The notes: generated by a model not told the origin, from the letters alone. A stretch of DNA of 47,635 nt from an uncultured Bacteroidales bacterium (GCA_964544385.1 CAZJCR010000004.1:363-47997); one strand, 5' to 3'; positions 796 through 42,201 are shown, counted from the stretch's first letter. Made by a program: numbers and translations.

Positions 796-880
796 CCAAA
801 ATTGGCTAATCGCTCAATCGATTTAGATTTTGTAAGCATTTCACTACACATAGTTTTTTAAAACATAACAAAATAAACAT
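796..880 (+). repeat. MITE-like repeat, copy A (left arm conserved, remainder degenerate)
   Basis: CCAAAATTGGCTAATCGCTCAATCGATTTAGATTTTGTAAGCATTTCACTACACATAG matches the left ~57 bp of the full-length copies (10980-11121, 41952-42092). The right part has decayed. Confidence 0.6.
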
Positions 881-1025
881 TTTATTTATACCCTATTATT
901 ACACTTGTACGTTATGCTTAAGCCAAACAACACAGGTAATAAACATGTTTTTAAAAACACATTATGTTTGGCTAAACAACATAAATATTAACTTTAACCA
1001 AAAAGTATTTTAACAATATTAATTT

Positions 1026-1442
1026 ATGAACAGGCTTGTGTTTTTTTTTACAATATTTTTAACATGCAATTTGTCGGCTCAAAAAAGGCCAAGGGTTACA
1101 AATATTGATGAACACGATTTTTTTGCATTAACCGACACTTGCAAAACTGCAGTAATTTTCGACGTTAGAGCTAACAATGCCTTTTACAAAAACAGGGTTA
1201 ATGGTGCATTTTATGTCGAAAACTCCGAAATTTTGGGCAAAATTACCGACACCCTTGATTTTAACACAGTTTTAGTATTATATTGCGAAGTGGGGCAACG
1301 TAGCAGTACAGCCTCCAAAATGCTTGTAAAAAAAGGGTTCAAAAAAGTATATAACTTAAAAAATGGTATCGACACTTATATTAACAAAGGATACAAAATT
1401 GATACATCGGCAATAAAAAGTTACAATATTAAAAAACAATAA
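1026..1442 (+). CDS. Rhodanese-like domain protein, secreted
   Basis: Signal peptide MNRLVFFFTIFLTCNLSAQ. Rhodanese active-site loop context VLYCEVGQRSSTASKML followed by VYNLKNGIDTY. Confidence 0.75.
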   Translation: MNRLVFFFTIFLTCNLSAQKRPRVTNIDEHDFFALTDTCKTAVIFDVRANNAFYKNRVNGAFYVENSEILGKITDTLDFNTVLVLYCEVGQRSSTASKMLVKKGFKKVYNLKNGIDTYINKGYKIDTSAIKSYNIKKQ

Positions 1443-1455
1443 TTGCTTAATTATT

Positions 1456-2151
1456 ATGGCAAAAAAACTATTAGTTGTTTTAACCGGAGCCGGCATTAGT
1501 GCCGAGAGCGGGTTAACCACTTTTCGCGATAACGGGGGACTTTGGGACAAATATAAAATTGAAGATGTTGCCACTCCAGAAGCATTTTACAAAAACCCTG
1601 CTTTAGTGCTCGAGTTTTACAACCAGCGACGCACCCAGCTTGCAACTGTTAAACCTAACCCTGCACATTATAACTTAGCTAAACTGCAAAACATTTTTAA
1701 TGTAAATATTATAACCCAAAATGTCGATAATTTACACGAGCAGGCTGGCAGTAATAATGTTTTACACCTGCATGGCGAGCTTACAAAAGTGCGTAGCTCA
1801 AAATACGAAAACCTTGTTTACGACATTGGAACATCGGAGATAAAAATTGGCGACAAATGCGAAAAAGGCTGCCAGCTTAGGCCCCATATTGTTTGGTTTG
1901 GCGAACCCGTACCTAACATCGAAAAAGCAATTGACATTGTTTCGGTTGCCGATATTTTTTTAGTAATTGGCACATCGCTAAACGTTTACCCGGCAGCCGG
2001 TTTAATAAATTACGTAAAGCCTGGCGTACCAAAATTTATTATCGACCCAAACGAAATTACATTACCATCAAAACTTAATTTTAAATTTATAAAAGCAACT
2101 GCTGTTGATGGAACAACCACATTAATTGAACAACTAAAAAACTATGCCTGA
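1456..2151 (+). CDS. cobB: NAD-dependent protein deacylase, Sir2/CobB family
   Basis: Motifs LTGAGISAESGLTTFRDNGGLW, QNVDNLHEQAG, HLHGEL and IVWFGE; 231 aa. Confidence 0.9.
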   Translation: MAKKLLVVLTGAGISAESGLTTFRDNGGLWDKYKIEDVATPEAFYKNPALVLEFYNQRRTQLATVKPNPAHYNLAKLQNIFNVNIITQNVDNLHEQAGSNNVLHLHGELTKVRSSKYENLVYDIGTSEIKIGDKCEKGCQLRPHIVWFGEPVPNIEKAIDIVSVADIFLVIGTSLNVYPAAGLINYVKPGVPKFIIDPNEITLPSKLNFKFIKATAVDGTTTLIEQLKNYA

Positions 2152-2758
2152 AAATTACTGTAAAATATACATTTTTACTATTACACTGCTTTTTAACTGT
2201 ATAGGTAATATAACATTTGCACAAGAGTTTAAAGCCGGTATTTATGCCGGTATGTCGGCATGCCAGCTCGATGGCGACCGATATAGCGGTTACAATAAAG
2301 CTGGTATTACAGGCGGCGTTTTTGTTAACAGGCTTTTTAACACAAAAATTGCTTACCAACTTGGTTTACGATATGCACAAAAAGGAAGCAGCAGGGTTGA
2401 CAACAAAAACAACGTATTTTATAAATCGGACCTGCATTATGCCGAATTACCTGTGTCTGTTCGCTATTATCACTATAAAAAATTAGATTTTGAAGCAGGC
2501 ATTAGCCTGAACTACCTTATAAAAGCCCGCGAAGACAAAACATCGTACGGATATACCGATGCAAACCCGGCTTTTAACAAATTCGAGGTTGGCGGTTTTG
2601 CCGGTATAAATTACAATTTTACCAACAAATGGCTTTTAATGGCTCACTTTTGTTACTCGCTAACAGCGGCAAGGCCTTACTCAAGCAATTACGAGAGGTT
2701 TATGGACAAAGGACAACACAATAATGTTATTGCTTTTACTATTGCTCGTTATTTATAA
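2144..2758 (+). CDS. Outer-membrane beta-barrel protein (porin-family / PorT-like), putative
   Basis: Signal peptide ending TFAQ, alternating amphipathic strand pattern, Tyr/Gly-rich, ~200 aa. Overlaps the cobB stop by 8 nt. Confidence 0.5.
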   Translation: MPENYCKIYIFTITLLFNCIGNITFAQEFKAGIYAGMSACQLDGDRYSGYNKAGITGGVFVNRLFNTKIAYQLGLRYAQKGSSRVDNKNNVFYKSDLHYAELPVSVRYYHYKKLDFEAGISLNYLIKAREDKTSYGYTDANPAFNKFEVGGFAGINYNFTNKWLLMAHFCYSLTAARPYSSNYERFMDKGQHNNVIAFTIARYL

Positions 2759-2776
2759 ACAGTAAAAAATTAATAT

Positions 2777-4300
2777 ATGCCACTTTTTAAAACAATATTA
2801 AGCTGGATTACTATTAAACGAATGAACGAAATTGATTTGTTCAGAAAATACCCCGCCGACGTGCAACGCGATACCCTTGAATCGTTACTTTCGTTAGCAT
2901 CGGATACCGAATTTGGAACAAAACACAATTTTGCAGATATAAAATCATTCGACGAATTTAGGAAACAAGTACCTCTGCAACAATACGACGACATAAAACC
3001 ATATGTCGAACGCCTTCGCAACGGCGAGAACAATGTTCTGTGGCCAGGCGAAATTAAATGGTTTGCAAAATCGTCGGGCACAACAAACGATAAAAGCAAA
3101 TTTATACCCGTTAGCCAGGAGGCTCTCGACGACTGCCACATGCGCGGCGGTAAAGACGTTTTATTTATTAACGATTTTTTATACCCAAACAGCCGTGTGC
3201 TTAAAGGCAAAAGCCTTATTGTTGGTGGAAGCCACAAAATTAACAACTTTAGTAACGAATCGTATTACGGCGATTTGTCGGCAATACTAATTGAGAACAT
3301 CCCTTTTTATGCCGAGTTTTACCGCACCCCAAAATCGTCGATAGCATTAATGGAAAATTGGGAAGAAAAGCTCGAAAAAATGGCCGAAGCTACAATTAAA
3401 GAAAACGTTACAAACATTTCGGGTGTACCATCGTGGACTTTAGTGCTTATTGAACGAATATTAAAAATATCGGGCAAAAATAATTTACTCGACGTTTGGC
3501 CAAACCTCGAACTTTTTATACATGGCGGCATAAGCTTTTTACCATACAAAGAGCAATATAAACAGGTTATTCCAAACCCCGACATGCACTACATCGAAAC
3601 CTATAACGCCAGCGAAGGTTTTTTTGGCATACAAGACAACCCCTTTGACAACTCAATGCTACTAATGCTCGATTACGGTATTTATTACGAGTTTATTCCA
3701 ATGGACATGTTCCACTCACACAACCCCCCGGCTTTAAATGTCGACGAAGTAACAACAAATGTAAATTATGCCGTTGTAATTAGCACAAACAGCGGTTTAT
3801 GGCGGTATATTATTGGCGATACAATTATGTTCACCAGCCTTAAACCCCACAAATTTATTATTACCGGACGTACAAAACACTTTATAAATGCCTTTGGCGA
3901 AGAGCTTATTGTTGACAATGCCGACAAAGCCATACGCATTGCCTGCGATAAAACCAAAGCAAAAGTACTTGAATACACAGCAGCACCGGTTTTTATGCAA
4001 GTTGGCAAACAAGGAGCACACGAGTGGATAATTGAATTCGAAACTTTGCCAAACGATATTGACTATTTTACCTACATGCTCGACGAGGCTCTTAAAACCG
4101 TAAACTCCGACTACGAGGCAAAACGATTTAAAAACTACAACCTCGACATGCCTATTGTACACCCGGTTAAAAAAGGAACTTTCCACACATGGCTAAAAAA
4201 TAACGGTAAACTTGGTGGCCAGCATAAAATACCTCGTTTATCGAACAACCGTCAATATGTTGAACAAATAATTAAAATGATTGAAAACAATAATCAATAA
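2777..4300 (+). CDS. GH3 auxin-responsive-promoter family protein (adenylate-forming fold)
   Basis: FGTKHNF..FRKQVPLQQYDDIKPYVERL and FAKSSGTTNDKSKFIPVS near the N-terminus. The 507-aa length is typical of bacterial GH3-family proteins. Confidence 0.8.
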   Translation: MPLFKTILSWITIKRMNEIDLFRKYPADVQRDTLESLLSLASDTEFGTKHNFADIKSFDEFRKQVPLQQYDDIKPYVERLRNGENNVLWPGEIKWFAKSSGTTNDKSKFIPVSQEALDDCHMRGGKDVLFINDFLYPNSRVLKGKSLIVGGSHKINNFSNESYYGDLSAILIENIPFYAEFYRTPKSSIALMENWEEKLEKMAEATIKENVTNISGVPSWTLVLIERILKISGKNNLLDVWPNLELFIHGGISFLPYKEQYKQVIPNPDMHYIETYNASEGFFGIQDNPFDNSMLLMLDYGIYYEFIPMDMFHSHNPPALNVDEVTTNVNYAVVISTNSGLWRYIIGDTIMFTSLKPHKFIITGRTKHFINAFGEELIVDNADKAIRIACDKTKAKVLEYTAAPVFMQVGKQGAHEWIIEFETLPNDIDYFTYMLDEALKTVNSDYEAKRFKNYNLDMPIVHPVKKGTFHTWLKNNGKLGGQHKIPRLSNNRQYVEQIIKMIENNNQ

Positions 4301-5081
4301 CAAGTTAATTATAATAACTGCACTTATACTGTTTTTTATTAGCAGTACAATAGCACAAAATATTACCAATGTTAATGTCAGCGCAAATTTTATCGACACC
4401 GACTCTCAAAACAATATTTATTTGGTAAGCGGTAAGCTATTGCAAAAATACGATACCAACGGAAAACTGTTGTACCAATACAGCAACGCCTTTTTAGGTA
4501 ACATTTCGGCTATCGATGTTACAAACCATTTAAAAATTTTACTTTTTTATTACAACACCCAAACAATAGTTTTTCTTAACCGCCAGTTAGCAATAATTGG
4601 CTCACCAGTAAACCTTAACAATTTAACATACAACAATGTACAATTAGCATGTAATAACATCGACGGTGGCTTTTGGGTTTTCGAACAATCAGACAACACA
4701 CTGGTAAATTATTCGCTATCGATGGTAAAAACCCACCAAAGCAACAGTATTATTAGCTACTTTAATAACCAAAACCCCCTATTTTTAATCCAGGCTGGCC
4801 AAAACTTGTATTTAAGCCTTACAAACAAAGTACTCGTTTTCGACCTGTATGGAACGTACATAAATACAATACAAATAAACTCAACAACAAAACCATCAAT
4901 TACACAATCAAATATTTTTTACTACAACGAGCATGGCTACTTTAAACACAATACAATAACAAACAACACCACAAAAATAAATATTAACAATACCATTGGC
5001 ATTTTTGATGTTAAACCATTACAAAACGGCTATTGCCTGATGCTTGAAAACAAACTATCGATAACACAACATAAGCAATAA
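4281..5081 (+). CDS. Hypothetical secreted protein, Asn-rich
   Basis: TTG start overlapping the GH3 stop. Signal peptide LILFFISSTIAQN. No recognisable motif. Confidence 0.45.
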   Translation: MKTIINNKLIIITALILFFISSTIAQNITNVNVSANFIDTDSQNNIYLVSGKLLQKYDTNGKLLYQYSNAFLGNISAIDVTNHLKILLFYYNTQTIVFLNRQLAIIGSPVNLNNLTYNNVQLACNNIDGGFWVFEQSDNTLVNYSLSMVKTHQSNSIISYFNNQNPLFLIQAGQNLYLSLTNKVLVFDLYGTYINTIQINSTTKPSITQSNIFYYNEHGYFKHNTITNNTTKININNTIGIFDVKPLQNGYCLMLENKLSITQHKQ

Positions 5082-5091
5082 AAAAAAATAT

Positions 5092-5121
5092 AAACCGTTT
5101 GATGTTATCAAAGGGGTTTTT
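5092..5121 (+). terminator. Possible rho-independent terminator
   Basis: AAACCGTTTGAT-GTT-ATCAAAGGGGTTTTT is an imperfect stem followed by a T-run, 11 nt after the stop at 5081. Confidence 0.4.
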
Positions 5122-5157
5122 CGAATATAACTAAACAAAATTTATTGTACCACCAAT

Positions 5158-6312
5158 ATGAAATTTTTCAATTTTTACAATTACAAACGTCAATGGAAAT
5201 TTATCATATTTTTTATGGCTATTACCATTGGCGCTCTGTCGTTGGTTTACACTAACATTTTGGTAAAAAAATTAAAAACCGAAGAGCGCGTAAAAATTGA
5301 AATGTGGGCCGAGGCCACACGTTCAATAGCTATTGTCGACGATATAACAAACGACATAAGCTTTTATCTTAAAGTTATAACCAACAATAAAACCATACCG
5401 GTAATACTAACCGACAAAAACGACAGCATAATATCGCACATAAATTTACCCGATATTAACGAACCCGGGTTTTACCAAAAAAACCTCAAAAAAATGAAAA
5501 CCGAAAAAGAACCAATAATTATTGATTTACCCGAAGGAAACCAAAACCGCATATATTACACCGATTCAACAATATTAAAACAACTATCAGCATTTCCTTA
5601 TATCCAATTAGCCATAATAACTGTATTTATATTTATATCGTACTTTGCCTTTAGCCGCGCCCGCAGCGACGAACAAAACCGGGTTTGGGTAGGAATGTCA
5701 AAAGAAACAGCGCACCAACTTGGAACACCAATATCGTCGTTAATGGCCTGGATAAACATACTTGGACAAACCGAAACAAACACACCCTACATAGCTGAAA
5801 TGGAGAAAGACATCTTCCGTTTACAAACAATAACCGAGCGTTTCTCAAAAATTGGTTCACAACCCAGCCTGCATGTCGAAAGTTTAGTTAATGTAATTGA
5901 AAACGCTATAAACTACATGAAAACCCGCACATCAAAAAACATAAATTTTATAACCAACTACGAAGTAAAATCAGAAGTACTTTTACCACTTAACCGGTCG
6001 CTATTTAACTGGGTTATCGAAAACCTTGTAAAAAACTCTGTTGATGCCATGGATGGAAAAGGCACAATAAAAATAAAAATAACTGAAACCGACAAAGAAG
6101 CACACATTGAAATAGCCGACACCGGCAAAGGCATACCAAAATCGAAACACAAAGCAATTTTTAACCCCGGGTACACCTCAAAAGACCGTGGCTGGGGATT
6201 AGGCCTTTCGTTAACTAAACGCATAATTAAGAACTACCATAATGGCAAAATATTTGTAGCTGCATCGGACCAAAACCAGGGAACAACTTTTAAAATAATT
6301 TTACCAAAGTAA
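5158..6312 (+). CDS. Sensor histidine kinase (two TM segments, HisKA + HATPase_c)
   Basis: H-box ETAHQLGTPISSL, N-box ENLVKNSVDAM, G-boxes DTGKGIP and GWGLGLSL. Confidence 0.85.
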   Translation: MKFFNFYNYKRQWKFIIFFMAITIGALSLVYTNILVKKLKTEERVKIEMWAEATRSIAIVDDITNDISFYLKVITNNKTIPVILTDKNDSIISHINLPDINEPGFYQKNLKKMKTEKEPIIIDLPEGNQNRIYYTDSTILKQLSAFPYIQLAIITVFIFISYFAFSRARSDEQNRVWVGMSKETAHQLGTPISSLMAWINILGQTETNTPYIAEMEKDIFRLQTITERFSKIGSQPSLHVESLVNVIENAINYMKTRTSKNINFITNYEVKSEVLLPLNRSLFNWVIENLVKNSVDAMDGKGTIKIKITETDKEAHIEIADTGKGIPKSKHKAIFNPGYTSKDRGWGLGLSLTKRIIKNYHNGKIFVAASDQNQGTTFKIILPK

Positions 6313-6421
6313 TTATCAGCATATTAGCACAATACAAGCAAATTTGTTTATTTTTAATCGTTTTAATTAAATACAAAAAGTAAATTTGCCCGCTATTTTT
6401 TTTATTTAAGCAATTTGTTTT

Positions 6422-6429
6422 TACTTTTG
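6422..6429 (+). promoter_or_regulatory. Bacteroidota-type -7 promoter box TACTTTTG (TAnnTTTG)
   Basis: Exact match to the TAnnTTTG consensus, 19 nt upstream of the ATG at 6448. It is part of a 10-mer TTACTTTTGC that recurs at 11831 and 26851. No good -33 TTG at canonical spacing. Confidence 0.5.
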
Positions 6430-6447
6430 CACGAATTTTTTTACAAC

Positions 6448-9751: not shown

Positions 9752-9808
9752 CCCAAATTTTACCTAAGTAAATAACTTTTTAGCTTTTCTTTAACTGCTC
9801 AACTTAGC
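9752..9808 (+). repeat. MITE-like repeat, copy K (left terminus fused to right-hand hairpin module)
   Basis: CCCAAATT + TTACCTAAGTAAA...AACTGCTCAACTTAGC. Compare the full-length right module ACCTAAGTAAAGCG..CCGCTCAACTTAGG. Lies between convergent stops at 9745 and 9811. Confidence 0.5.
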
Positions 9809-9810
9809 TT

Positions 9811-10893: not shown

Positions 10894-10979
10894 TTTGCTT
10901 AATTTGACGATAAATATAAATATTAATTATTATGATTATTGCCATAGTACGAACCTTTTTAACCCGTATTTGTTTGTAA

Positions 10980-11121
10980 CCCAAATTGAGCGTTTCCCGC
11001 TCAATCGATTTAGATTTTGTAAATATTTCACTATACTTGGTTAATGAAACACAACAAAACTATATCGGGGTTAACCTAAAGTAAAGCATTTATTTGCTAC
11101 GCTTTAATCGCTTAACTTAGG
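10980..11121 (+). mobile_element. MITE-like repeat, copy B (full length, 142 bp)
   Basis: Ends CCCAAATTGAGCG ... CGCTTAACTTAGG. Flanked by a perfect 5-bp direct duplication, TGTAA at 10975-10979 and 11122-11126. Lies in a divergent intergenic region. Confidence 0.8.
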
Positions 11122-11203
11122 TGTAAGTACCAATAATATTTTTTTGCAAAATAACCTTTAATTATTTACATTTTTGCTACATGCAAAATTAAAACAAACA
11201 ATT

Positions 11204-11859: not shown

Positions 11860-11932
<73 letters not shown>

Positions 11933-11937
11933 CTGGC

Positions 11938-12090: not shown

Positions 12091-12486
12091 ATGAAAAAAA
12101 GTATTTTATCAATAATTTTTTTAATAGCAATATCGACAATTGTATTTGCACAGGAACAAGCACCAGGCGCGAAAAAAGTCAGGGTTATGGAACAAAAGTA
12201 CACAAAAGGCGACGACAGCCCCGAAATTGACTCGGAAGCTACTTTTGATGCAAATGGAAATATTATTGAAGAGGTTAAATTTAAAGATGGCAAAATTGAC
12301 AGCAAAGTAACTTACAAATTTGACGAAAAAGGCAACAAAATTAGCGAAACAAAAACCGATAAAACAGGCAAAATTTACGAGATTATTGAATATAAATATA
12401 ATAACAACCTGCGCGTTGAAAAACTTGAATACGACGGCAAAAAGAAACTTATTAAACGCAAAGTATACGAATACGAGATGCGGTAA
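12091..12486 (+). CDS. Hypothetical secreted protein with short Lys/Gly-rich beta-hairpin-like repeats
   Basis: Signal peptide IIFLIAISTIVFAQ. Repeated pattern of the type DANGNIIEEVKFKDGKIDSKVTYKFDEKGNKISE. Confidence 0.5.
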   Translation: MKKSILSIIFLIAISTIVFAQEQAPGAKKVRVMEQKYTKGDDSPEIDSEATFDANGNIIEEVKFKDGKIDSKVTYKFDEKGNKISETKTDKTGKIYEIIEYKYNNNLRVEKLEYDGKKKLIKRKVYEYEMR

Positions 12487-12530
12487 TTATTGTTTATAGC
12501 ATTTACAACATAAAACATAATGACGGTAAC

Positions 12531-13079
12531 ATGCCAAACATAAACAATAAAAAAATAATATTAGTATTTGCGCTAATATTTACAATTAGCAGTTACGCTC
12601 AAATACTTATACCTAAAAAAGATTACGTTCCCGAGATACGCTATGCAAGATACTCGTTTACAATATCATTAACATCGGGGGCAAATAGTTCGCCAATAAC
12701 TTTTGGCATTTATTGCCAGGCTCCCGACAGTAGTGTTGAAGTTATTTTTTTAAATAAAGACTCGTTTATACGTCAATTTTGTGGATTTGAAGACTCAAAA
12801 GCCAACCCCGACAAAATTAATTATTGCGACGAGTATAAAATAAACCCATCGGTTTTCAATAATTTATGGAAACTAAAGTACGCCCAATACCCGTTCGACG
12901 ATAGCAATGAAACCGGCTGGGGAACTAAAACCGGCACACCATCGAGTCAACAGTTTACCTTATTGTCGGAGTTTGGTATAACCAATTTATCGGAACATTG
13001 TTATGGACATAACCTTATACGCTTGTTTAAAAGTGTCGACAATGCAGCATGGGTTGGCAAATATATGCAGTTAAAATAG
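12531..13079 (+). CDS. Hypothetical secreted protein
   Basis: Signal peptide LVFALIFTISSYAQ. No motif recognised. Confidence 0.45.
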   Translation: MPNINNKKIILVFALIFTISSYAQILIPKKDYVPEIRYARYSFTISLTSGANSSPITFGIYCQAPDSSVEVIFLNKDSFIRQFCGFEDSKANPDKINYCDEYKINPSVFNNLWKLKYAQYPFDDSNETGWGTKTGTPSSQQFTLLSEFGITNLSEHCYGHNLIRLFKSVDNAAWVGKYMQLK

Positions 13080-13080
13080 G

Positions 13081-13443
13081 CTATTTAAGATTTGAACGTT
13101 GGTCCAACAGTTTATTAATTTCGGCCTCGGTTAGCGATTCATTTTTAAGTAAAGTATCAATCGCATCGAGTTTATTATTATCGGGAGTATAATAGTAAAG
13201 CTCTGCTTTAAGTTGTTCAACCATTCCGGTAAGCAAAGTTTTAAGCGGGCCGCCAACCTCCTCAATAAAATTTTCGGGCACCACTTTTTTCATCGATTCG
13301 TACTGGTTTGCAAGTTGCTCAAAATTGTCAAAAAGCTGTTCGTCTTTAATATATGCACCATCGGCAACAGCTTTATTTTTAAGCTGTTTAAAAAGCCCTA
13401 TTAATTCGTCAAGTTGGCCAATAAATGTATTATCGTTAGTCAT
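13081..13443 (-). CDS. Hypothetical protein (predicted all-helical, acidic)
   Basis: 120-aa ORF with an ATG start, no signal peptide and no motif. Confidence 0.45.
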   Translation of the reverse strand: MTNDNTFIGQLDELIGLFKQLKNKAVADGAYIKDEQLFDNFEQLANQYESMKKVVPENFIEEVGGPLKTLLTGMVEQLKAELYYYTPDNNKLDAIDTLLKNESLTEAEINKLLDQRSNLK

Positions 13444-13579
13444 AATAACTAAAAAAATTATTTGTTTTATTAAATAACAGTTAACAATGTATAATTGTTA
13501 CTATTGTTATAATTAATATTAAAACAATATGAATTAAATTGCAGCCATAAATTTAATTTTTTAATTAACACATAACAAA

Positions 13580-14122
13580 ATGAGCAAGAAACTATTATTA
13601 GCAGTTATATTGTTTTTAGGGGCTATAGTAAGTAATGCACAAGTATTTTCAACTTCGGCAACACTTAAAAAGGGGAGTTTTAGTGTTGGCATACATCCAA
13701 CATTACTTGCATCGGGGTCCACCCATTTTATTTTGTTTGCCCGTGGCGGGTATGGTTTAACAAAAGGCATTGACCTTGATGTAAAATTGGGTGTTTTAGG
13801 CCCCGGTAACACTTATGTAGGTGCCGATATTGAGTTTGCAATGAACAAGTATGTGTCGGTTAGTGCCGGTGCACACAATTGGGGCACATTTGGTTTAGAT
13901 GGTTCGGTACTTGCAACATTTGCAATGCGCAAAAATGTTAACTTTTACACCGGTTTAGATGCCGATATTAATTTTGCCGACGATGTTGAATTTCCGCTTT
14001 GGCTGCCACTTGGGTTCGAAATTGGCCTTAAAAAAGGGCTATCGTTTATGTTCGAGGCCGATGTTAATTTAACCAACAACAACTACCACCTTATTAGCGG
14101 AGGCGTTAACCTTTATTTTTAA
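13580..14122 (+). CDS. Small outer-membrane beta-barrel protein, hypothetical
   Basis: Signal peptide AVILFLGAIVSNAQ, Gly-rich alternating strands, and a C-terminal aromatic residue (GGVNLYF) typical of OMPs. Confidence 0.55.
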   Translation: MSKKLLLAVILFLGAIVSNAQVFSTSATLKKGSFSVGIHPTLLASGSTHFILFARGGYGLTKGIDLDVKLGVLGPGNTYVGADIEFAMNKYVSVSAGAHNWGTFGLDGSVLATFAMRKNVNFYTGLDADINFADDVEFPLWLPLGFEIGLKKGLSFMFEADVNLTNNNYHLISGGVNLYF

Positions 14123-14191: not shown

Positions 14192-14225
14192 TCAAAATTG
14201 AGTCTTTAGCTTAATTGGCTTAATT
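14192..14225 (+). repeat. Possible degenerate minimal MITE-like hairpin (copy L)
   Basis: TCAAAATTGAGTCTTTAGCTTAATTGG resembles the minimal form ACCAAAATTGAGCGTTTAGCTCAACTTAG at 39982. Downstream, CATCGGGGTAACCC resembles the internal CATCGGGGTTAACC of copy B. Confidence 0.3.
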
Positions 14226-17614: not shown

Positions 17615-18448
17615 ATGATAAACAACGATAACTTAAAAAGTGCCAATATTTTAATAATCGACGACCAATATATAAATATTGAAGTACTCGAAGGATTTTT
17701 TGAGATTCAGGGATACCACAATGTTAAAAGCATTGACGACCCCAGGGTTTTTCAAACCGTTTTTGAGAAATTTTGCCCCGATATTATTCTACTCGACCTT
17801 ACTATGCCATATTTTTCGGGGTACGATATTATTAACGAGATAAAAAAAACAAATACCAACAACATATTTTTACCTGTTTTGGTACTAACTGCCGACGTTT
17901 CGTCCGAATCGAAAAAAAAAGCTCTTGCCGCCGGTGCAACCGATTTTTTAACTAAACCATACGATTTAATAGAAGTGGGTTTGCGAGTAAATAACCTACT
18001 TTTTACACGCTTTTTACACAAAAACCTTAACAACGATTATTCAAAACTTGAACAAAAACTTAACGAATGTAAAACACAACCAAAAATATTAAACACCAAC
18101 ATTACCAACAAAACAAATATTTGCGAATTAATTGTTGACAATTTACACGACACTACAATTTTAGTCGAGAAATGCGAAAACAAATGCAAAATTGTTTTTT
18201 TTAACAAAGCTGCATCACAACAATTTAGCTCCTTAAAAACCGACGAATATATTTACGAATGTTTACCGCCCCACACCTCGGGTTTAATTAGCCAAAACGC
18301 TTTACAATGCATTGAACAAAACAAATATATTACATTAAAAAACAATAATTATTTACATAAATACGTACCAATAAATAACCTGCCAACAATATATAAATAT
18401 GCACTAATAACTATTACCCAAATTGAGCTATTCGCTCAATCGATATAG
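17615..18448 (+). CDS. Response regulator receiver protein with uncharacterised ~130-aa C-terminal region
   Basis: Receiver motifs ILIIDDQ, IILLDLTMP, VLVLTAD, FLTKPYD. No HTH recognisable. The last 10 codons plus the stop (TQIELFAQSI*) are encoded by repeat copy C. Confidence 0.8.
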   Translation: MINNDNLKSANILIIDDQYINIEVLEGFFEIQGYHNVKSIDDPRVFQTVFEKFCPDIILLDLTMPYFSGYDIINEIKKTNTNNIFLPVLVLTADVSSESKKKALAAGATDFLTKPYDLIEVGLRVNNLLFTRFLHKNLNNDYSKLEQKLNECKTQPKILNTNITNKTNICELIVDNLHDTTILVEKCENKCKIVFFNKAASQQFSSLKTDEYIYECLPPHTSGLISQNALQCIEQNKYITLKNNNYLHKYVPINNLPTIYKYALITITQIELFAQSI

Positions 18449-18483
18449 AGTTTGTTCGCTTAGCTCCAACCGCTCAACTTAGG
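18417..18483 (+). mobile_element. MITE-like repeat, copy C (internally deleted, 67 bp)
   Basis: CCCAAATTGAGCTATTCGCTCAATCGAT joined to ATAGAGTTTGTTCGCTTAGCTCCAACCGCTCAACTTAGG. Flanks are TATTA (18412-18416) and CATTA (18484-18488). Confidence 0.75.
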
Positions 18484-18583
18484 CATTAGCAAACAATAAA
18501 TTTAACAATATTCAATACAAATCGTTTTCAAAAAAAGTAGCTTTATTTTATAATACTGCAAGTATAAACCAACAATTATTTAT

Positions 18584-20301: not shown

Positions 20302-20355
20302 CCATTATTTATACTACAACACTAACCAAATAATAAATTATTATAGAAACTATTA

Positions 20356-20435
20356 CCTAAGTTGAGCGGTTTAAGTAAAACAAACAAGAACTTTACCTAT
20401 GTCTAACTACAATTCAACCAATCGCTCAATTTGGG
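20356..20435 (-). mobile_element. MITE-like repeat, copy D (reverse orientation, divergent interior, 80 bp)
   Basis: CCTAAGTTGAGCGG ... CGCTCAATTTGGG. Flanks are TATTA (20351-20355) and TAATA (20436-20440). Confidence 0.65.
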
Positions 20436-20575
20436 TAATAACAACAAATTTGTTATTAGTTTCGGCCTTTTTAAAAGCCCCACAACAACCAAACAACATA
20501 GCATATAAACATTGGCAACAATATCATCTATAATTAATAAATTATGTTGCTAAAACAGTAAAATAAGCAAAACAA

Positions 20576-22403: not shown

Positions 22404-22411
22404 CAACATAA

Positions 22412-22442
22412 CCCAACTTGAGCTAATGGCTCAATCGATTTA
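22412..22442 (+). repeat. MITE-like repeat, copy E (solo left-arm hairpin)
   Basis: CCCAACTTGAGCTAATGGCTCAATCGATTTA equals the left terminus plus first stem-loop. It fills the 36-nt gap between the convergent stops at 22403 and 22440 and overlaps the gldA-like stop codon. Confidence 0.6.
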
Positions 22443-23342
22443 CTTTTTTGTTAGCTTTTGAAAAACCTGCTCTAACGACAGTTCTTGTTTTTGCATCGAC
22501 AAAACGCTTAGTTGGTTTTTAACTGCAAAACTGAACAATTGCTCCCTAATATCGCTTTTTGCCTCAATAATGTAAGCAGCCCCGGCCAAATTTTTTACCG
22601 ATATAATATCGGGCAAATTAAAATTATTAGTGCTTACAGGTTTATTAAACTCAATACTAATAACAATAGTTTTGCCATTACTCAATTGTTGTATTGTTTT
22701 AGTATTGTTGTTAGCCACAATAACCCCATTGTTAATAATAATTATTTGTTGGCAAATAGCCTCAACCTCTTGCATAATATGGGTCGATAGCATAACAGTT
22801 TTTTCTTTTCCGGCATCGGCAATAAGGTTACGTATTTCAATAATTTGGTTTGGGTCGAGCCCCGATGTGGGTTCGTCTAAAATAAGTACTTTAGGGTTGT
22901 GTACAAGTGCCTGTGCTAAACCAACCCTTTGCCTGTAACCTTTCGACAGTTCGCCAATTTTTTTATGCTGCTCGTTACCAAGGCCTGTAAGTTCAATAAT
23001 TTGCAAAACACGTTTGTTAATATTGTCGAGTTTGTAAATACCGGCTACAAATGCCAGGTACTCTTTAACATACATTTCGAGATAAAGCGGGTTATGTTCG
23101 GGTAAATATCCTATAAGCCTTTTAATCTCTAAAGGGTTATCGATAGCATTAATACCTTCGACAATAATATTGCCGGTATCGGGGGGCAAAAAACCGGTAA
23201 TTATTTTCATCATTGTTGATTTACCTGCACCATTAGGGCCTAAAAAGCCTACTACCTGGCCACTATCGATGCTAAAACTAATATTATCGAGAGCTTTTTG
23301 TGCACCGTATGTTTTTGTAACGTTGTTAACTTGTATCGACAT
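22440..23342 (-). CDS. gldA: ABC transporter ATP-binding protein, GldA-like
   Basis: Walker A GPNGAGKST, signature LSKGYRQRVGLA, Walker B VLILDEPTSGLD. The 300-aa length and N-terminus resemble gliding-motility GldA. gldF and gldG are not adjacent. Confidence 0.6.
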   Translation of the reverse strand: MSIQVNNVTKTYGAQKALDNISFSIDSGQVVGFLGPNGAGKSTMMKIITGFLPPDTGNIIVEGINAIDNPLEIKRLIGYLPEHNPLYLEMYVKEYLAFVAGIYKLDNINKRVLQIIELTGLGNEQHKKIGELSKGYRQRVGLAQALVHNPKVLILDEPTSGLDPNQIIEIRNLIADAGKEKTVMLSTHIMQEVEAICQQIIIINNGVIVANNNTKTIQQLSNGKTIVISIEFNKPVSTNNFNLPDIISVKNLAGAAYIIEAKSDIREQLFSFAVKNQLSVLSMQKQELSLEQVFQKLTKK

Positions 23343-29066: not shown

Positions 29067-29124
29067 AATTGCATTTTTTTTTGAGGTTACAAATGTAATT
29101 ATTTTCATCATATTTACTTTAATT

Positions 29125-29161
29125 ATAATCCAAATTGAGCGAATTGCTCAATTTGGATTAT
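29125..29161. repeat. MITE-related perfect palindrome (copy F)
   Basis: ATAATCCAAATTGAGC-GAATT-GCTCAATTTGGATTAT forms a 16-bp perfect stem built from two inverted left termini. Lies between the rnr stop (29173) and the pheS start. Confidence 0.75.
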
Positions 29162-29172
29162 AATCAATATTT

Positions 29173-31377: not shown

Positions 31378-31598
31378 AATTTTATTTTTTTATTACGATG
31401 CTAAAGGTAAGGTTTTTTTAAAGGTATAACTGGCACAATAGTTAAGTTATTATTACCTAAATTAAGCAAATATAGCACGCAAAATGCCCTGTAACTAAAT
31501 ATTTGGGCAATACTAAAAAATTATCGGCAAACCAATTGGCTATATTATAACCATTTAAAAAATTAGAGTTTAAATTAAGGCAAATATACTATATAATA

Positions 31599-31739
31599 CC
31601 CAAATTGAGTGTTTCCCTCTCACCATAAAATGTTTGTAGCCTTTAACTACAATACGTTTATGAAAGCCAATAAAATCTAAATTGGGGGGTAATACTAACT
31701 AAAGCATTTTTTCACTTTGTTCAAAACGCTAAATTAAGG
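31599..31739 (+). mobile_element. MITE-like repeat, copy G (full length, strongly diverged)
   Basis: CCCAAATTGAGTGTTTCCCTCTCA ... AAACGCTAAATTAAGG. Same length (141 bp) and collinear blocks with copy B. Flanks do not match (TAATA / TCGTA). Confidence 0.55.
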
Positions 31740-31750
31740 TCGTAGATATA

Positions 31751-36460: not shown

Positions 36461-37315
36461 ATGGATTTTACTATTAATAACATTAATGAACTTATAAACA
36501 AGCACTTGTTTTTAGTTTATAATGCCAACGAGCGTAAACAAATTTTATTTTTGTTATGTAACCATTTTGCGGGGCTCGCGGCATCAAAAGTACTTGCTTA
36601 CGCCGATGCAAAAATAAACAATTATGTTTATAATGATATTGAACAAGCTGTAAAACGTCTTGCCCAAAACGAGCCAATACAATATGTGTTAGGTTACGAA
36701 GAGTTTTATGGATTAAAATTTAAAACAAATAAAAGTGTTTTAATACCACGCCCCGAAACCGAGGAACTTGTAAAATGGATAATTGACGAAAACAAGCTTG
36801 TAAACCCTCGCATAATTGATATTGGTACTGGTAGTGGCTGTATTGCAGTAGCCCTGGCCAAAAATATTGCAGGGGCTAAAGTAAGTGGTATCGACATATC
36901 GGGGCAAGCTATTGAAACCGCAAAACAAAATGCCAAAACTAACAATGTTGATATTGACTTTTTTTTGCTCGATATTTTATTGGCAAACAATAATAGTTTT
37001 AGCACCAAATACAACATTATTGTTAGTAACCCGCCATACATTTTAAACAACGAAAAACAATTTATAAAAAGCAATGTACTTGATTACGAACCACACAGCG
37101 CGCTATTTGTGCCCAACACTGAACCGCTTTTGTTTTACAAAAAAATAGCAAAACTGGCTAAACACATGCTTGAACCTAACGGCAAAATATATTTTGAGAT
37201 AAACGAAAAATTTGGTTTACAAGTTGTTAATGATTTAAAGAGCAACGGGTTTATAAGCATTGAACTGCGCAACGATATTTTTGACAAGCCACGAATGGTA
37301 CGCGGTGGGTTGTAA
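36461..37315 (+). CDS. prmC: Peptide chain release factor N5-glutamine methyltransferase
   Basis: SAM motif IIDIGTGSGCIAVALA and catalytic IIVSNPPYI. The ATG at 36461 (MDFTINN) avoids the 119-nt overlap with ribD that the track start at 36317 would imply. Confidence 0.88.
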   Translation: MDFTINNINELINKHLFLVYNANERKQILFLLCNHFAGLAASKVLAYADAKINNYVYNDIEQAVKRLAQNEPIQYVLGYEEFYGLKFKTNKSVLIPRPETEELVKWIIDENKLVNPRIIDIGTGSGCIAVALAKNIAGAKVSGIDISGQAIETAKQNAKTNNVDIDFFLLDILLANNNSFSTKYNIIVSNPPYILNNEKQFIKSNVLDYEPHSALFVPNTEPLLFYKKIAKLAKHMLEPNGKIYFEINEKFGLQVVNDLKSNGFISIELRNDIFDKPRMVRGGL

Positions 37316-37455
37316 ATAAGTTGAGCGGTTGGAGCTATGCGAACAAACGCTTTACTTAGGTATAATCCCGATGTAGAGTTTGTTGTGTTTCACTAATGAA
37401 GTGTAGTGAAATACTTACAAAATCTAAATCGATTGAGCGATTAGCTCAATTTGGG
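37315..37455 (-). mobile_element. MITE-like repeat, copy H (full length, reverse orientation)
   Basis: About 94% identical by hand alignment to the reverse complement of copy J, and identical over the ~70 bp at the CTTAGG end apart from the last two bases. Flanked by a perfect 5-bp duplication, TTGTA at 37310-37314 and 37456-37460. The first base completes the prmC stop codon. Confidence 0.85.
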
Positions 37456-37461
37456 TTGTAG

Positions 37462-39873
37462 TTAAAACTCGCGGTACATTGGTATTGTAAAGCTAAAAGT
37501 TGTACCAACGCCAACAGTGCTGTTACACCAAATGCTGCCGCCAAGTTTTTTTACCAGCTCGTAACTAAGTATAAGGCCTAAGCCCGAACCTTTTTCGCTG
37601 TTAGTACCGGTGGTAGTAAAGTTTTCTTCAATTTTAAACAGCTTATTCAGGTGTTGCTCAGGTATACCTACCCCATTATCGGCAACCGAAACCTCAACCA
37701 TATCGCTTTTAAGTGTCGAACTAATTTCGATAACACCATTAACATTTGTGTACTTAAGGGCATTCGACACTAAGTTGCGCAACACGGTAAACAACATATT
37801 TTTATCGACATAAACCATGTGGTTTGCATTAACGCTATTAATTAAAATTATTTGTTTAGTGTCGGCAGCAATTTTAACAAGGCCAAGTGCATCGTCAATA
37901 ATATCGTAAAGTTTAAAAAGTTCGGGTTTGTATTCAATACGCCCGGTTTGCGCCCTGGCCCATTCTAAAAGGTTTTCGAGCAGTTTAAACACTTTTGTTG
38001 CCGATTCGTTGGCATGTTTAAGGTAATACTCGGTTTTTTTAGTATCGAGTTCTTTAAAGTTTTTGTAAAGCAAATCGGTTATACCAACTAAGCCGGTAAA
38101 TGGGCTGCGAAGGTCGTGCGCTATAATCGAAAAAAATTTGTCTTTTTTTGCATTAAGTTCGTGAAGTTCGCTGGCTGTTTTTTCAAGTGTCTCCTGGTTA
38201 CGTTTTAGCTGTGTAATATCCTCTTTTATAGCAATAAAATTTGTAATTTTTCGCATATTGTTTAGTACCGGGGCAATGCGTACAGTTTCGTAATAAATAT
38301 CGCCATTTTTTTTTCGGTTAATAAGCTCACCATTCCAAACACTTCCTTTACTAATTGTTTGCCACAAATCGGTAAATATTCGTGGTTCGGTTAAGCCCGA
38401 CTGCAAAATACGCGGGTTTTGGCCAATAATTTCGGTTGGGCTATAGCCAGTAAACTCTGAAAAAAAAGGGTTCACGTATTCAATATTTCCCTGCTGGTCG
38501 GTAATTAAAATACTGCTGGGGCTGTTCATAATAATTGTCGAGAATTTTTGCAGCTCGAGCTCACTTTTGCGACGCTCGGTAACATCGAACGCGCTGACCA
38601 TAACGGCTGTTTGTCCCTCGTATTTTATCAGCGATGTTGAAAGTTCCATGTATTTATCGTTTCCCCATTTGTCAACCAAATGGGCAACATACCCGGTTTG
38701 AACCGGTTTGCCCAAAAGCCTGTCGACCAACATTTGGCGACGTTGTTCGCGTTCGTCGGGGTGTATTATTAAAAGTGGGTCAAGTTGTAATGCCTCGTCA
38801 AATGAATATCCGCTTTGCTCTATCCAGGCCTTATTAACCATTAAGTAACCTTTTTTATTAAATATTGATATTGACAGGTTCGAGCTTTCGAACATACTCC
38901 TGAATTTTTCTTCGCTGTCAATTAGCTGTTGCTTAACCTCGCGTTCGCTGGTAATGTCGTTTAAAATGCCATCGATAATAATATCGTTGCCGTTTTGCGA
39001 CGATACCCTGCCTTTTTCGGAAACCCATTTTTGCTGATTTGTGCTTGTAGTAATAAGGTATTCAACAGCAAATTCTGATTTTGTTTTTATTGCCGTTTTA
39101 ATTGCATTTGCAACTAAAGTTTTATATTCGTTAACAATTATATTAGCATAAACACGCTGGTTATTAATAAAATCGACAGCTTTATATCCCGAAAGGGTTT
39201 CAATTTCGTCGCCAATAAATTCAACTTTTAGCTTACCATTTAAAACGCACCTGTAAGGCACTCCGGGTATGTTTTTAATAAGGTTTTTAAAGCGTGTTTC
39301 GTTAATTTTTAAGTCGTTGGTAAGTTTATGTTTATTGCAAATAATTGCTGCCAGCGATATAAACGACTCGATTATATTAAGGTCGGTTTTTGGCGATTGC
39401 TTAAACAATACAAGGTGTATGCCTGCTAATAGCTGTCCCTCGTTAACCATACCACCCGAGTAAATTTGTTTTATGCCCAACAGTTTTGCAGCTAAGTCAA
39501 TATTGCTGTTTGTAATTTTGTTTTTACCTAATTCAATAACTTTATATTGTAAATTAAAAAGGCGGCCTGCCAAAAACCTATTAAACCTGTGTTCGCTAAT
39601 TTTATATTTACTTTCAAAAGGATTAAAGCCAAGTATTTTAACAGCACGCGCTAAATCGGCATTGCCCAAACCTACAACTTTAATAATATCAACATCGTAA
39701 TTTTTAATGTTTATTTTTGTAACAATAACTATACTTTTGCCAACACGTTTGTGTATCGATTCGGTTATAAAGCTATAAAGTTGGTCGGGGGTTTTTAAGG
39801 CCATCATTTTTACTGCCGACTCGTTGAGCCAACGTAACCCTTTTTCGGTTGTGTTTTTTCGATTAAATATCAT
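37462..39873 (-). CDS. Multi-PAS sensor histidine kinase
   Basis: Several PAS/PAC-like segments. H-box IAHDLRSPFTGL, N-box LVSNALKYT, G-boxes DNGVGIP and GSGLGLILS. 803 aa. Confidence 0.85.
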   Translation of the reverse strand: MIFNRKNTTEKGLRWLNESAVKMMALKTPDQLYSFITESIHKRVGKSIVIVTKINIKNYDVDIIKVVGLGNADLARAVKILGFNPFESKYKISEHRFNRFLAGRLFNLQYKVIELGKNKITNSNIDLAAKLLGIKQIYSGGMVNEGQLLAGIHLVLFKQSPKTDLNIIESFISLAAIICNKHKLTNDLKINETRFKNLIKNIPGVPYRCVLNGKLKVEFIGDEIETLSGYKAVDFINNQRVYANIIVNEYKTLVANAIKTAIKTKSEFAVEYLITTSTNQQKWVSEKGRVSSQNGNDIIIDGILNDITSEREVKQQLIDSEEKFRSMFESSNLSISIFNKKGYLMVNKAWIEQSGYSFDEALQLDPLLIIHPDEREQRRQMLVDRLLGKPVQTGYVAHLVDKWGNDKYMELSTSLIKYEGQTAVMVSAFDVTERRKSELELQKFSTIIMNSPSSILITDQQGNIEYVNPFFSEFTGYSPTEIIGQNPRILQSGLTEPRIFTDLWQTISKGSVWNGELINRKKNGDIYYETVRIAPVLNNMRKITNFIAIKEDITQLKRNQETLEKTASELHELNAKKDKFFSIIAHDLRSPFTGLVGITDLLYKNFKELDTKKTEYYLKHANESATKVFKLLENLLEWARAQTGRIEYKPELFKLYDIIDDALGLVKIAADTKQIILINSVNANHMVYVDKNMLFTVLRNLVSNALKYTNVNGVIEISSTLKSDMVEVSVADNGVGIPEQHLNKLFKIEENFTTTGTNSEKGSGLGLILSYELVKKLGGSIWCNSTVGVGTTFSFTIPMYREF

Positions 39874-39981
39874 TAATTCAGTAAAAATGTTTAATTAAAG
39901 ATATGCTTTTTATTTATAAATAAATTACCTGCATTTTAAAAAAGCAGGCAAGTTAATGTTTACTAATTTAGCTTAGTAAAA

Positions 39982-40011
39982 CCAAAATTGAGCGTTTAGC
40001 TCAACTTAGAT
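39982..40011 (+). repeat. MITE-related minimal element (copy I: left terminus + right terminus only)
   Basis: CCAAAATTGAGCG-TTTA-GCTCAACTTAGAT forms a hairpin. Possible TAAAA duplication on both sides. Lies in the divergent kinase/uvrC promoter region. Confidence 0.6.
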
Positions 40012-40054
40012 TAAAATTAAACAATTTTTTTAACCTTTAGTTTAACCATTAAAA

Positions 40055-41863
40055 ATGGACAATACTGTTAACAATAATATTAAAGAGTTAGTACAGGCTT
40101 TGCCCGAAAAGCCCGGGGTTTATCAGTATTACGATGCTACGGGCACAATTATTTATGTTGGCAAAGCCAAGAACCTAAAAAAAAGGGTGTCGTCGTACTT
40201 TACTAAAAACCACGACAATGCGAAAACCCGTATTTTAGTACGTAAAATTGCCGACATAAAACATATTGTTGTTGATACCGAACAAGACGCGTTGCTTTTA
40301 GAAAACAACATGATAAAAAAGTATCAGCCGCGGTATAACGCCATGCTTAAAGACGACAAAACCTACCCGTGGATTTGCATAAAAAACGAACCTTTTGCAA
40401 GGTTAATAACCACCCGTAATTTCGTGCGCGACGGCTCAACTTATTTTGGCCCATACGCGTCGGGGCGTACACTTTACGTGATGCTCGATTTTATTCGCAA
40501 TTTGTATCCTTTACGCACATGCAACCTTAATTTAAATAAAACCGAGATAGAAAAAAACCGTTACAAAACTTGTTTAGAGTACCACATTGGAAACTGTTTA
40601 GGGCCTTGCACAGGCTTGCAAACCGAGCATGATTACGACCAGAATATTGCAAACATTAAAGACATTTTAAAAGGAAATATACAATCGGTTATTAAAGCAT
40701 TAAAAGAGCGTATGGCTCAACTTAGCACCGAATACAAATTTGAAGAGGCACAAAAACTAAAAGAAAAACTTCACCATTTAGAGAATTATCAAAGTAAATC
40801 GACAATAGTTAGCCCAACAATTAACAATGTCGATGTTTTTTCGTTTGTCGACGATAATAACTCGGCATTTATAAACTACCTAAAAGTTGTAAACGGTGCA
40901 ATTGTACAGGTACATACCGTTGAATATAAAAAACGTACCGACGAAGAACGCGAATCGTTGTTACTTACTGCAATAACCGAAATAAGGCAAAGGTTGGGCA
41001 GTTTGTCGCGCGAAATTATTGTACCTTTTGGGCTCGACTTTGACATTGGAAACGCTACATTTACCACACCAGTACGCGGCGACAAAAAAAAGCTGCTCGA
41101 CCTTAGTACACGTAATGCTTTTTACTTTAAAAACGAAAAGCTAAAACAACAAATTAACCGTACACCGCAACAACGCGCAACCCGGATAATGGAAACAATG
41201 AAAACCGACCTTAGGCTTAAACATAACCCGGTACATATCGAAGGTTTCGATAACTCGAACATACAGGGTACTAACCCGGTTGCATCGTGCGTGGTTTTTA
41301 AAAACGGTAAACCAAGCAAACGCGACTATCGCCATTTTAACATTAAAACTGTTGATGGTCCTAACGATTTTGCCAGTATGGAAGAGATTATTACCCGACG
41401 ATATTCGCGCATGATTGACGAAAACAACTCCCTGCCACAGTTAATTGTTATCGACGGTGGTAAAGGGCAATTAGGCGCTGCTGTTAAAAGCCTCGAGAAA
41501 CTAAACCTTATTGGCAAAATTGCAATTATTGGAATCGCCAAAAGGCTCGAAGAAATTTATTTCCCGGGCGATTCGGTACCTATTTATTTAGACAAAAACA
41601 GCGAAACCCTGAAAATAATACAACACATACGCAACGAGTCGCACAGGTTTGGTATAACCTTTCATCGACTAAAACGCTCGAAAAATTTTATAACCAGCCA
41701 GCTTGACCAAATAAAAGGTCTGGGGCCAAAAACTATCGAAAAACTTTTAGCCAGTTTAAAATCGGTTGATGGAGTAAAACAAGCAAACCAGCAAACCCTT
41801 GAAAATATAATTGGAAAAGCAAAAGCCAATATTGTTATTGAGTTTTTTAACAAACACAATTAA
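40055..41863 (+). CDS. uvrC: Excinuclease ABC subunit C
   Basis: GIY-YIG N-terminus (GVYQYYDATGTIIYVGKAKNLKKRV), a UVR motif, a C-terminal RNase H-like endonuclease region (IVIDGGKGQL) and HhH. Confidence 0.93.
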   Translation: MDNTVNNNIKELVQALPEKPGVYQYYDATGTIIYVGKAKNLKKRVSSYFTKNHDNAKTRILVRKIADIKHIVVDTEQDALLLENNMIKKYQPRYNAMLKDDKTYPWICIKNEPFARLITTRNFVRDGSTYFGPYASGRTLYVMLDFIRNLYPLRTCNLNLNKTEIEKNRYKTCLEYHIGNCLGPCTGLQTEHDYDQNIANIKDILKGNIQSVIKALKERMAQLSTEYKFEEAQKLKEKLHHLENYQSKSTIVSPTINNVDVFSFVDDNNSAFINYLKVVNGAIVQVHTVEYKKRTDEERESLLLTAITEIRQRLGSLSREIIVPFGLDFDIGNATFTTPVRGDKKKLLDLSTRNAFYFKNEKLKQQINRTPQQRATRIMETMKTDLRLKHNPVHIEGFDNSNIQGTNPVASCVVFKNGKPSKRDYRHFNIKTVDGPNDFASMEEIITRRYSRMIDENNSLPQLIVIDGGKGQLGAAVKSLEKLNLIGKIAIIGIAKRLEEIYFPGDSVPIYLDKNSETLKIIQHIRNESHRFGITFHRLKRSKNFITSQLDQIKGLGPKTIEKLLASLKSVDGVKQANQQTLENIIGKAKANIVIEFFNKHN

Positions 41864-41951
41864 TGTTTTACATATAACCTAAAATCAGCAACCATATTTT
41901 TCTAACCACAGAGAGCACTGAGAAAAACATCAATGTTTTAAATGAGTCAAA

Positions 41952-42092
41952 CCCAAATAGAGCGAATCGCTCAATCGATTTATATTTTGTAAGTATTTCA
42001 CTGCACTTCGTTGGTGAAATACAACAAACTCTACATCGGGATTATACCTAAGTAAAGCGTTTGTTCGCATAGCTCCAACCGCTCAACTTAGG
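41952..42092 (+). mobile_element. MITE-like repeat, copy J (full length, 141 bp)
   Basis: CCCAAATAGAGCG ... CGCTCAACTTAGG. Perfect 5-bp duplication, TCAAA at 41947-41951 and 42093-42097. Three stem-loops: TAGAGCGAATCGCTCAA (one stem mismatch; TTGAGCG in other copies), GTATTTCAC-N12-GTGAAATAC, ACCTAAGTAAAGCG-N20-CGCTCAACTTAGGT. Confidence 0.85.
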
Positions 42093-42201
42093 TCAAACTT
42101 TGCGGTTCTCTTTTTACCTTGCGGTTTGTAGTATTTTATTTGCAGATTTTAGGTATAAAACAATATTGAACCTATATTATTTTATATATATTGTTTGATA
42201 T

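Follow-up and report, generated by a model that had tools for sequence, protein, structure and literature searches.

A dense family of modular, MITE-like intergenic repeats with 5-bp target-site duplications in an uncultured Bacteroidales bacterium

A stretch of 47,635 nucleotides from an uncultured Bacteroidales bacterium (GCA_964544385.1, CAZJCR010000004.1:363-47997), hereafter the window, was found to hold a dense family of short repeats with 13-nt inverted-repeat termini. The intact copies are flanked by perfect 5-bp duplications, all copies are restricted to the spaces between genes and to extreme gene ends, copies occur outside the window, and one site appears empty in a relative. We consider, with a probability of about 0.8, that these repeats are miniature inverted-repeat transposable elements (MITEs), that is, short non-coding derivatives of an insertion sequence (IS) which would be moved in trans by a transposase of DDE type encoded elsewhere.

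Copies, termini and target-site duplications

A profile built from the four full copies (C, G, H and J) was run on the window with nhmmer and recovered 11 solid copies of 29-142 bp (Table 1). They comprise five copies of ~141 bp, two of which are decayed, three internally deleted copies, one copy reduced to its left module and two hairpins of ~30 nt; a profile of the left module alone gave an identical copy map. Together, the 11 copies account for 2.1% of the window, or for 17% when only its non-coding part is counted. The 9-nt terminal core AANTTGAGC was observed 17 times against 1.7 expected, a count that none of 100 shuffles reached, and 14 of the 17 matches fall inside the claimed copies. 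The dense ~141-bp family of at least 11 copies that the initial annotation had proposed from the sequence is thus real, with minor corrections. Copy A had been taken for an internally deleted element (796-880) and is instead a near-full-length, decayed copy with 67-69% identity to H and J, while the supposed minimal terminus-to-terminus hairpin at 22412-22442 (copy K) is a left module alone. Four possible relics had also been listed; none reached significance (nhmmer E of at least 1 or no match), and the one at 14192-14225 alone is convincing by eye.

Table 1. Copies of the repeat family in the window, with their nhmmer matches and flanking sequences
Copy	Position	Strand	Form	nhmmer match	Flanks
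A	796-924	+	near full length, decayed; left and middle modules recognisable, right module eroded	793-924 (+), E 2.9e-13	
B	9752-9808	+	internal deletion that fuses 8 left-terminal nt to the right module	9762-9809 (+)	TATTA/TTTTA
C	10980-11121	+	full length, 142 bp	10976-11125 (+), E 5e-41	duplication TGTAA at 10975-10979 and 11122-11126
possible decayed minimal hairpin	14192-14225	.	66% identity to copy L	E 8.9, no statistical support	
E	18417-18483	+	67-bp deletion derivative, junction at TTTGT	18414-18485 (+), two pieces, reflecting the internal deletion	TATTA/CATTA
F	20356-20435	-	left and right modules, middle module gone	20408-20353 (-)	TATTA/TAATA
K	22412-22445	+	left module only	22409-22461 (+)	
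L	29129-29157	.	minimal palindrome: terminus, 5-nt loop, terminus	29127-29159, both strands	palindrome ATTATAAT on both flanks
G	31599-31739	+	full length, decayed; ~68% identity to H and J	31596-31743 (+), E 5e-37	TAATA/TCGTA
H	37315-37455	-	full length	37459-37313 (-), E 1e-45	duplication TTGTA at 37310-37314 and 37456-37460
M	39982-40011	+	minimal: left terminus, 5-nt loop, right terminus	39979-40005 (+)	TAAAA/TAAAA
J	41952-42092	+	full length	41948-42096 (+), E 1e-47	duplication TCAAA at 41947-41951 and 42093-42097

The left terminus is CCCAAATTGAGCG and the right end is CGCTCAACTTAGG, the reverse complement of which reads CCTAAGTTGAGCG. As had been claimed, the two form inverted repeats of 13 nt that agree at 11 of 13 positions; past position 13 their similarity is random-like. 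Copies C, E, F, H and J all have these conserved termini at their ends.

After the termini had been placed by alignment, the flanking 5-mers were read and compared with 5-mers lying 146 bp apart in the window. By chance, a perfect match is expected at a given site with a probability of 0.0019 and a match at four or more of the five positions with a probability of 0.025. The flanks of C, J and H (TACAA on the strand of the element) match at 5/5, reproducing the duplications noted initially, and those of E and F match at 4/5, again as first described. Copy B also has 4/5, copy M 5/5 with a boundary uncertain by 1 nt, and the old copy G 3/5. Three perfect duplications, all differing in sequence, at all three intact copies (C, H and J) cannot be chance. 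The flanking 5-mers are nearly all of the form T-N-N-N-A, with T first and A last, and such a symmetry is expected of a target preference suiting a transposase dimer. The sequences predicted for the empty sites are GGTGGGTTGTAGTTAAAAC, AATGAGTCAAACTTTGCGG, TTTGTTTGTAAGTACC and ATAACTATTAGCAAACAATAA.

An extra copy, 96% identical to H, was detected outside the window at an unrelated locus, between convergent genes, on a metagenome contig (L088) of the Joint Genome Institute (JGI); two other pattern matches in JGI metagenomes were dismissed as chance. On L088 (1158-1306, - strand), an extra left module and a copy are arranged in tandem, the right hairpin of that copy being reduced to the palindrome ACTTAAGT. 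A terminator-like hairpin (ACGACGTCAGGA..TCCTGATGTCGTTG) immediately precedes the element, which also adjoins the stop codon of a convergent open reading frame (ORF) of 365 aa.

Modular architecture and deletion derivatives

The master 141-bp form is made of three hairpin modules. When full copy J was folded, three stem-loops were obtained on either strand (DNA, -23.8 kcal/mol, z -5.7; RNA, z -4.6 and -4.7), in agreement with the three stem-loops predicted earlier. As read from the sequence, in each outer module a terminus pairs with its own inverted copy inside the element, namely CCCAAATTGAGCG..CGCTCAATCGATTTAG for the L1/L2 pair and ACCTAAGTAAAGCG..CGCTCAACTTAGGT for the R1/R2 pair. Because of this pairing the full element holds four terminus-like sites, and these account for the derivatives E, F, B, K, L and M. 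The pentamer TTTGT at the junction of copy E is present twice in the full element, where it constitutes a microhomology.

The internal deletions, which are clear in E, F and B, would also be found if each copy had shrunk from a full insertion sequence where it now lies and the 141-bp unit had never been mobile. However, C, G, H, J and the L088 copy share their internal structure at different loci, which requires the copying of an already-miniature master, and no transposase fragment was found in any copy. Decay in place is, in our view, extremely improbable.

The hairpins invite a comparison with repetitive extragenic palindromic (REP) sequences, with the bacterial interspersed mosaic elements (BIMEs) that contain them and with REP doublets forming hairpins (REPINs), which depend on REP-associated tyrosine transposases (RAYTs). 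The present family has in common with them palindromes of ~30 nt, mosaic composites, a very high intergenic density and the breaking of assemblies. A hairpin unit of ~30 nt could accordingly have spread as single-stranded DNA through a Y1 (HUH) transposase of RAYT or IS200/IS605 type, the 141-bp form being a BIME-like mosaic; L, M and the single left modules (K and the one on L088) are palindromes of REP size, and the outer modules are themselves hairpins. Unlike REP sequences and REPINs, the present element combines inverted repeats with perfect 5-bp duplications of variable sequence at its intact copies, and the flanking 5-mers show no constant target motif. To our knowledge, elements moved by Y1 transposases make no such direct duplications. 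Moreover, the termini start with CCCAAA and lack a conserved GTAG-type 5' tetranucleotide, and neither a Y1 transposase domain nor a RAYT was found among the window ORFs. We regard this mode of spread as decidedly improbable.

Folding is not a constant property of the family. Copy L together with its palindromic ATTATAAT flanks (29121-29164) forms a perfect 22-bp hairpin (-28.6 kcal/mol, z -12.6), and the deleted copies fold no better than shuffles (E, z -1.2; B, z +0.4). Since E and B have no stable fold, structure is not maintained across the family, which argues against selection for it.

Genomic setting, strains and relatives

The window represents unremarkable chromosomal DNA of a Bacteroidota bacterium, 88% coding and 12% non-coding, with plsX, fabH, the L32 gene, pheS, the RNase R gene, lpxK, ribD, a prmC-like gene, uvrC, two-component systems and a gene for a type IX secretion system (T9SS) cargo protein; a tRNA-Phe (11860-11933) is its only Rfam match at gathering level. 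Each of the 11 copies is intergenic or reaches no further than the last codons of a gene (P ~1e-11). They occur in both orientations without strand bias, and the gene pairs around them are convergent, tandem and divergent. The initial annotation had placed every copy in intergenic DNA, mostly at gene 3' ends or between convergent genes. The first part holds in the sense that all copies occupy the non-coding fraction or last codons, but A, C and M lie between divergent genes and E overlaps an ORF. As had also been stated, no transposase is present: no transposase domain was detected in window ORFs of at least 100 aa by domain searches or in precomputed Pfam results. A scan for the Bacteroidetes promoter motif TAnnTTTG showed that it is not conserved inside the element.

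Copy A separates a - strand gene starting at 611 from a divergent rhodanese gene at 1026, copy C lies between divergent glycosyltransferase and lipocalin genes, and copy M between divergent histidine-kinase and uvrC genes. Between convergent genes, B fills a 65-bp gap, H fills the gap of the PrmC-like methyltransferase and PAS histidine-kinase genes, and J is found between uvrC and the gene for the T9SS cargo protein (1710 aa). Copy K makes up the whole spacer of convergent LytTR-regulator and ABC-ATPase genes, and the stop codon of the ATPase gene (22440-22442) is inside it. Copy L occupies a 61-bp spacer between the RNase R gene and pheS, both on the - strand, and its 22-bp hairpin may act on the RNase R-pheS transcript.

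At three copies the element has altered a gene 3' end: at K, which supplies the stop codon of the ATPase gene, at E and at H. Copy E overlaps the final 32 nt (18417-18448) of a response-regulator ORF, which in the predicted empty site would extend three codons further, to a TAA; the last 3 codons are swapped by the insertion, such that the predicted ...ITISKQ* becomes ...ITITQIELFAQSI*, with ten element-encoded residues. At copy H, the stop codon of the PrmC-like gene (37313-37315) is half duplication and half element; it would be TAG in the predicted empty site and is TAA now, at the same codon. The predicted empty sites would thus restore sensible gene ends at both H and E.

The species recurs in at least six public sequencing runs (among them SRR8655117, SRR8655119, SRR28867351, SRR28867362 and DRR784985), and conspecific Logan assemblies from six runs show 98-100% identity to the window. 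The ends of their contigs fall within copies A, C, E, K, L and H, at window positions 900, 11027-11035, 18454, 22410-22439, 29129, 37346, 37428 and 37454; for instance, L082 aligns only from 900, inside A, L082 and L084 both end inside C, and L081 starts inside E. Breaks of this kind are expected in short-read assemblies of a multi-copy repeat, and the family is a main cause of fragmentation for this species.

These contigs also bear on the history of copy H. H and J share 132 of 141 positions, and over their last 70 bp only the two terminal bases differ. This near-identity had been read as a sign of recent activity. The 9 differences in 141 positions were confirmed, but the argument for recent transposition is unsound, because other strains carry a 13%-diverged allele of H and that of the window is the consensus-like one, which points to gene conversion. 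In two other samples (L095, 1030-1168, and L096, 1-28; the H site is also covered by L090, 1-31), the element at the H site has the same unique flanks and differs from that of the window (37315-37455) at 18 of 140 positions, whereas the flanks around it differ by only 0.9-2%. None of the other copies differs between strains beyond the intergenic background. Of these 18 positions, J, C and the L088 copy each share 12-13 with the window allele and 3-4 with the other one, and the H of the window is therefore the consensus-like allele. In its simplest reading, this suggests that H was converted by another copy in the lineage of the window, and the interior of L095 may be partly an assembly artefact. 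Gene conversion would likewise account for the match of H with J throughout their last 70 bp, terminal bases apart.

A Salinivirgaceae metagenome-assembled genome (MAG) keeps the LiaF-HK-LytTR-ABC gene order around copy K (HK, histidine kinase). Its regulator and ATPase genes share a 4-bp overlap; their counterparts in the window are separated by a 36-bp spacer, almost all of which is copy K, and both ATPases end at the same aligned residue. Judged from this alignment, the copy K site in the MAG is an empty orthologous site at family-level distance. Comparison of insertion sites, which had been suggested for sister strains, thus gave no empty site in strains 98-100% identical to the window, whereas a family-level relative has an empty site at the position of copy K.

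In the same relative, a 195-aa gene with no Pfam match (L097 5319-6000) is located between the LiaF-like gene and the LytS-type kinase gene. At its place the window has only a 274-bp spacer (20302-20575) containing copy F, and the gene may have been lost there.

Many copies lie just after stop codons or between convergent genes, the full copies fold well (z ~-5) and copy L forms a perfect hairpin of 22 bp, as might be expected of a cis-acting element under selection, such as a terminator, an mRNA-stabilising 3' hairpin or a protein-binding site, that was not spread by transposition. Against this, the copies are found in both orientations, three of them (A, C and M) between divergent genes, their hairpins are not followed by a T-run, the deleted copies lose the fold, and Rfam gave no match even at E <= 10. 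A cis-acting function would also leave the target-site duplications unexplained, and the element is absent at the syntenic K site and in all loci of relatives. We judge such an origin very improbable, although single copies, such as L, may have been co-opted secondarily. The preference expressed initially for transposition over a REP-like origin or a fixed motif is upheld by the inverted repeats, the significant 5-bp duplications and the empty K site. Among narrower candidates, an intrinsic terminator was rejected on the missing T-runs, and an integron attC site or a CRISPR array was rejected on reading the sequence, which has neither regular spacing nor GTTRRRY-type ends.

None of 82 loci of relatives contained the element. 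Eighty uvrC neighbourhoods of Bacteroidota genomes were free of it and, showing no synteny with the window, could not serve to look for empty sites; in L003 the terminus pattern was matched exactly twice, both times in GC-rich coding DNA, and these matches were discarded as chance. An exact-pattern scan of the GTDB species representatives with the left-module core gave no hit among the matches listed. The nearest uvrC product among these representatives has 74% protein identity, followed by that of Salinivirgaceae at 69%, and the nearest LytS-type kinase in a collection of 5.8 billion proteins is 58% identical (Salinivirgaceae), with no intermediate relatives in that collection. On these protein comparisons, the host is an isolated lineage.

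No catalogued counterpart was recovered either, in line with the initial annotation, which had not recognised the sequence as a described element. Rfam returned nothing on the element at gathering level and no match at E <= 10 on copy J with its flanks, distant blastn against a plasmid collection and three patterns searched in viral contigs gave no match, and the terminal sequence strings matched only unrelated papers in the open literature. Judged on Rfam, plasmids, viral contigs and open papers, the element is apparently new and undescribed.

Two other features of the window were recorded. The gene for the T9SS cargo protein (42255-47387, - strand) encodes LTD, Big_5, DUF5689 and Por_Secre_tail domains and contains internal DNA repeats ~258 bp apart, presumably repeated Ig-like domains. 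Just downstream of the tRNA-Phe, region 12091-14122 holds four consecutive small ORFs (120-182 aa) with no Pfam match.

Proposed mechanism, known relatives and significance

In the mechanism that we infer, a transposase, most likely of DDE type, would bind the 13-nt inverted repeats CCCAAATTGAGCG ... CGCTCAACTTAGG and insert the element at a 5-bp staggered cut in AT-rich T-N-N-N-A DNA, repair of the stagger giving rise to the 5-bp duplication. Because the genome is compact (88% coding), only insertions between genes or at the extreme 3' ends of genes would survive. The terminus-paired layout would favour slippage, which would generate the deletion derivatives E, F and B, the single modules (K and the first unit on L088) and the hairpins L and M, and copies would exchange sequence by gene conversion.

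In several respects the family resembles bacterial MITEs such as the Correia elements or Neisseria miniature insertion sequences (Correia/NEMIS) of Neisseria and the repeat units of pneumococcus (RUP) of Streptococcus pneumoniae. Like these, it is 100-160 bp long and non-coding, has inverted repeats and a duplication of fixed length, is intergenic, often abutting or overlapping gene ends, and includes internally deleted subtypes. The density of Correia elements is similar to the ~2% of the window reported here. Correia elements and RUP duplicate TA, whereas the present element duplicates 5 bp of the form T-N-N-N-A; unlike them, it has inverted repeats of only 13 nt, with each end inside its own hairpin. 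We know of no recognisable sequence similarity to Correia/NEMIS or RUP.

Within the Bacteroidota, the BrickBuilt elements of Porphyromonas gingivalis are modular, strictly intergenic and MITE-like, with subunits that have small inverted-repeat ends (PMC4596501). The present element is likewise modular and intergenic, and it belongs to a different host lineage. BrickBuilt has a 23-nt tandem minisatellite between a 'leader' and a 'tail', whereas the present element has no tandem repeats and is made of its three hairpin modules.

Duplications of ~5 bp are made by IS701, ISH3 and IS1634 (PMC2266710). The likeness to these families is in duplication length only, and with no transposase at hand for comparison the element was assigned to no family. 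The ends of IS1380 elements begin with CC and their duplications are 4-5 bp, which would fit CCCAAA.../CCTAAG.... Elements of the Tn3 family have ends of ~38 nt that start with GGGG and make a 5-bp duplication. Tn3-derived inverted-repeat miniature elements (TIMEs) were considered for that duplication length and were rejected, given that the inverted repeats of the present element are only 13 nt and start with CCC/CCT.

Several observations weigh against identifying the family as MITEs. The inverted repeats are short, with two mismatches in 13 nt. Copy K has no recognisable duplication, and copy L has the palindromic 8-mer ATTATAAT on its flanks in place of a clean 5-bp duplication. No autonomous element with the same termini was found in the window, and scans of viral contigs were empty, so that we can only infer mobilisation in trans. 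The copies open to examination number about a dozen. Finally, among the recovered conspecific contigs every covered insertion is shared, with neither presence/absence polymorphism nor empty sites, and there is therefore no direct proof of recent movement. We nevertheless retain the MITE interpretation at the probability given above. A more far-reaching form of it is unlikely: it supposes that the ~30-nt modules are independently mobile and assemble into composites homogenised by conversion, that they are moved by an unclassified transposase in a Bacteroidota lineage novel at the family level, and that they reach ~1 copy per 4 kb genome-wide and routinely rewrite gene 3' ends, as with the stop codons at H and K and the new C-terminus at E.

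Dense intergenic MITE families are well known in bacteria, and for this reason the present one opens no new mechanistic question. Its distinctive points are the modularity in which hairpins are formed within the termini, the way in which gene ends are rewritten and what appears to be gene conversion. For this lineage, the family explains the fragmentation of short-read assemblies every few kilobases, and it provides a marker for strain typing and for finding the active insertion sequence of the lineage. More generally, it offers a compact example of MITEs that remodel gene 3' ends and undergo gene conversion.

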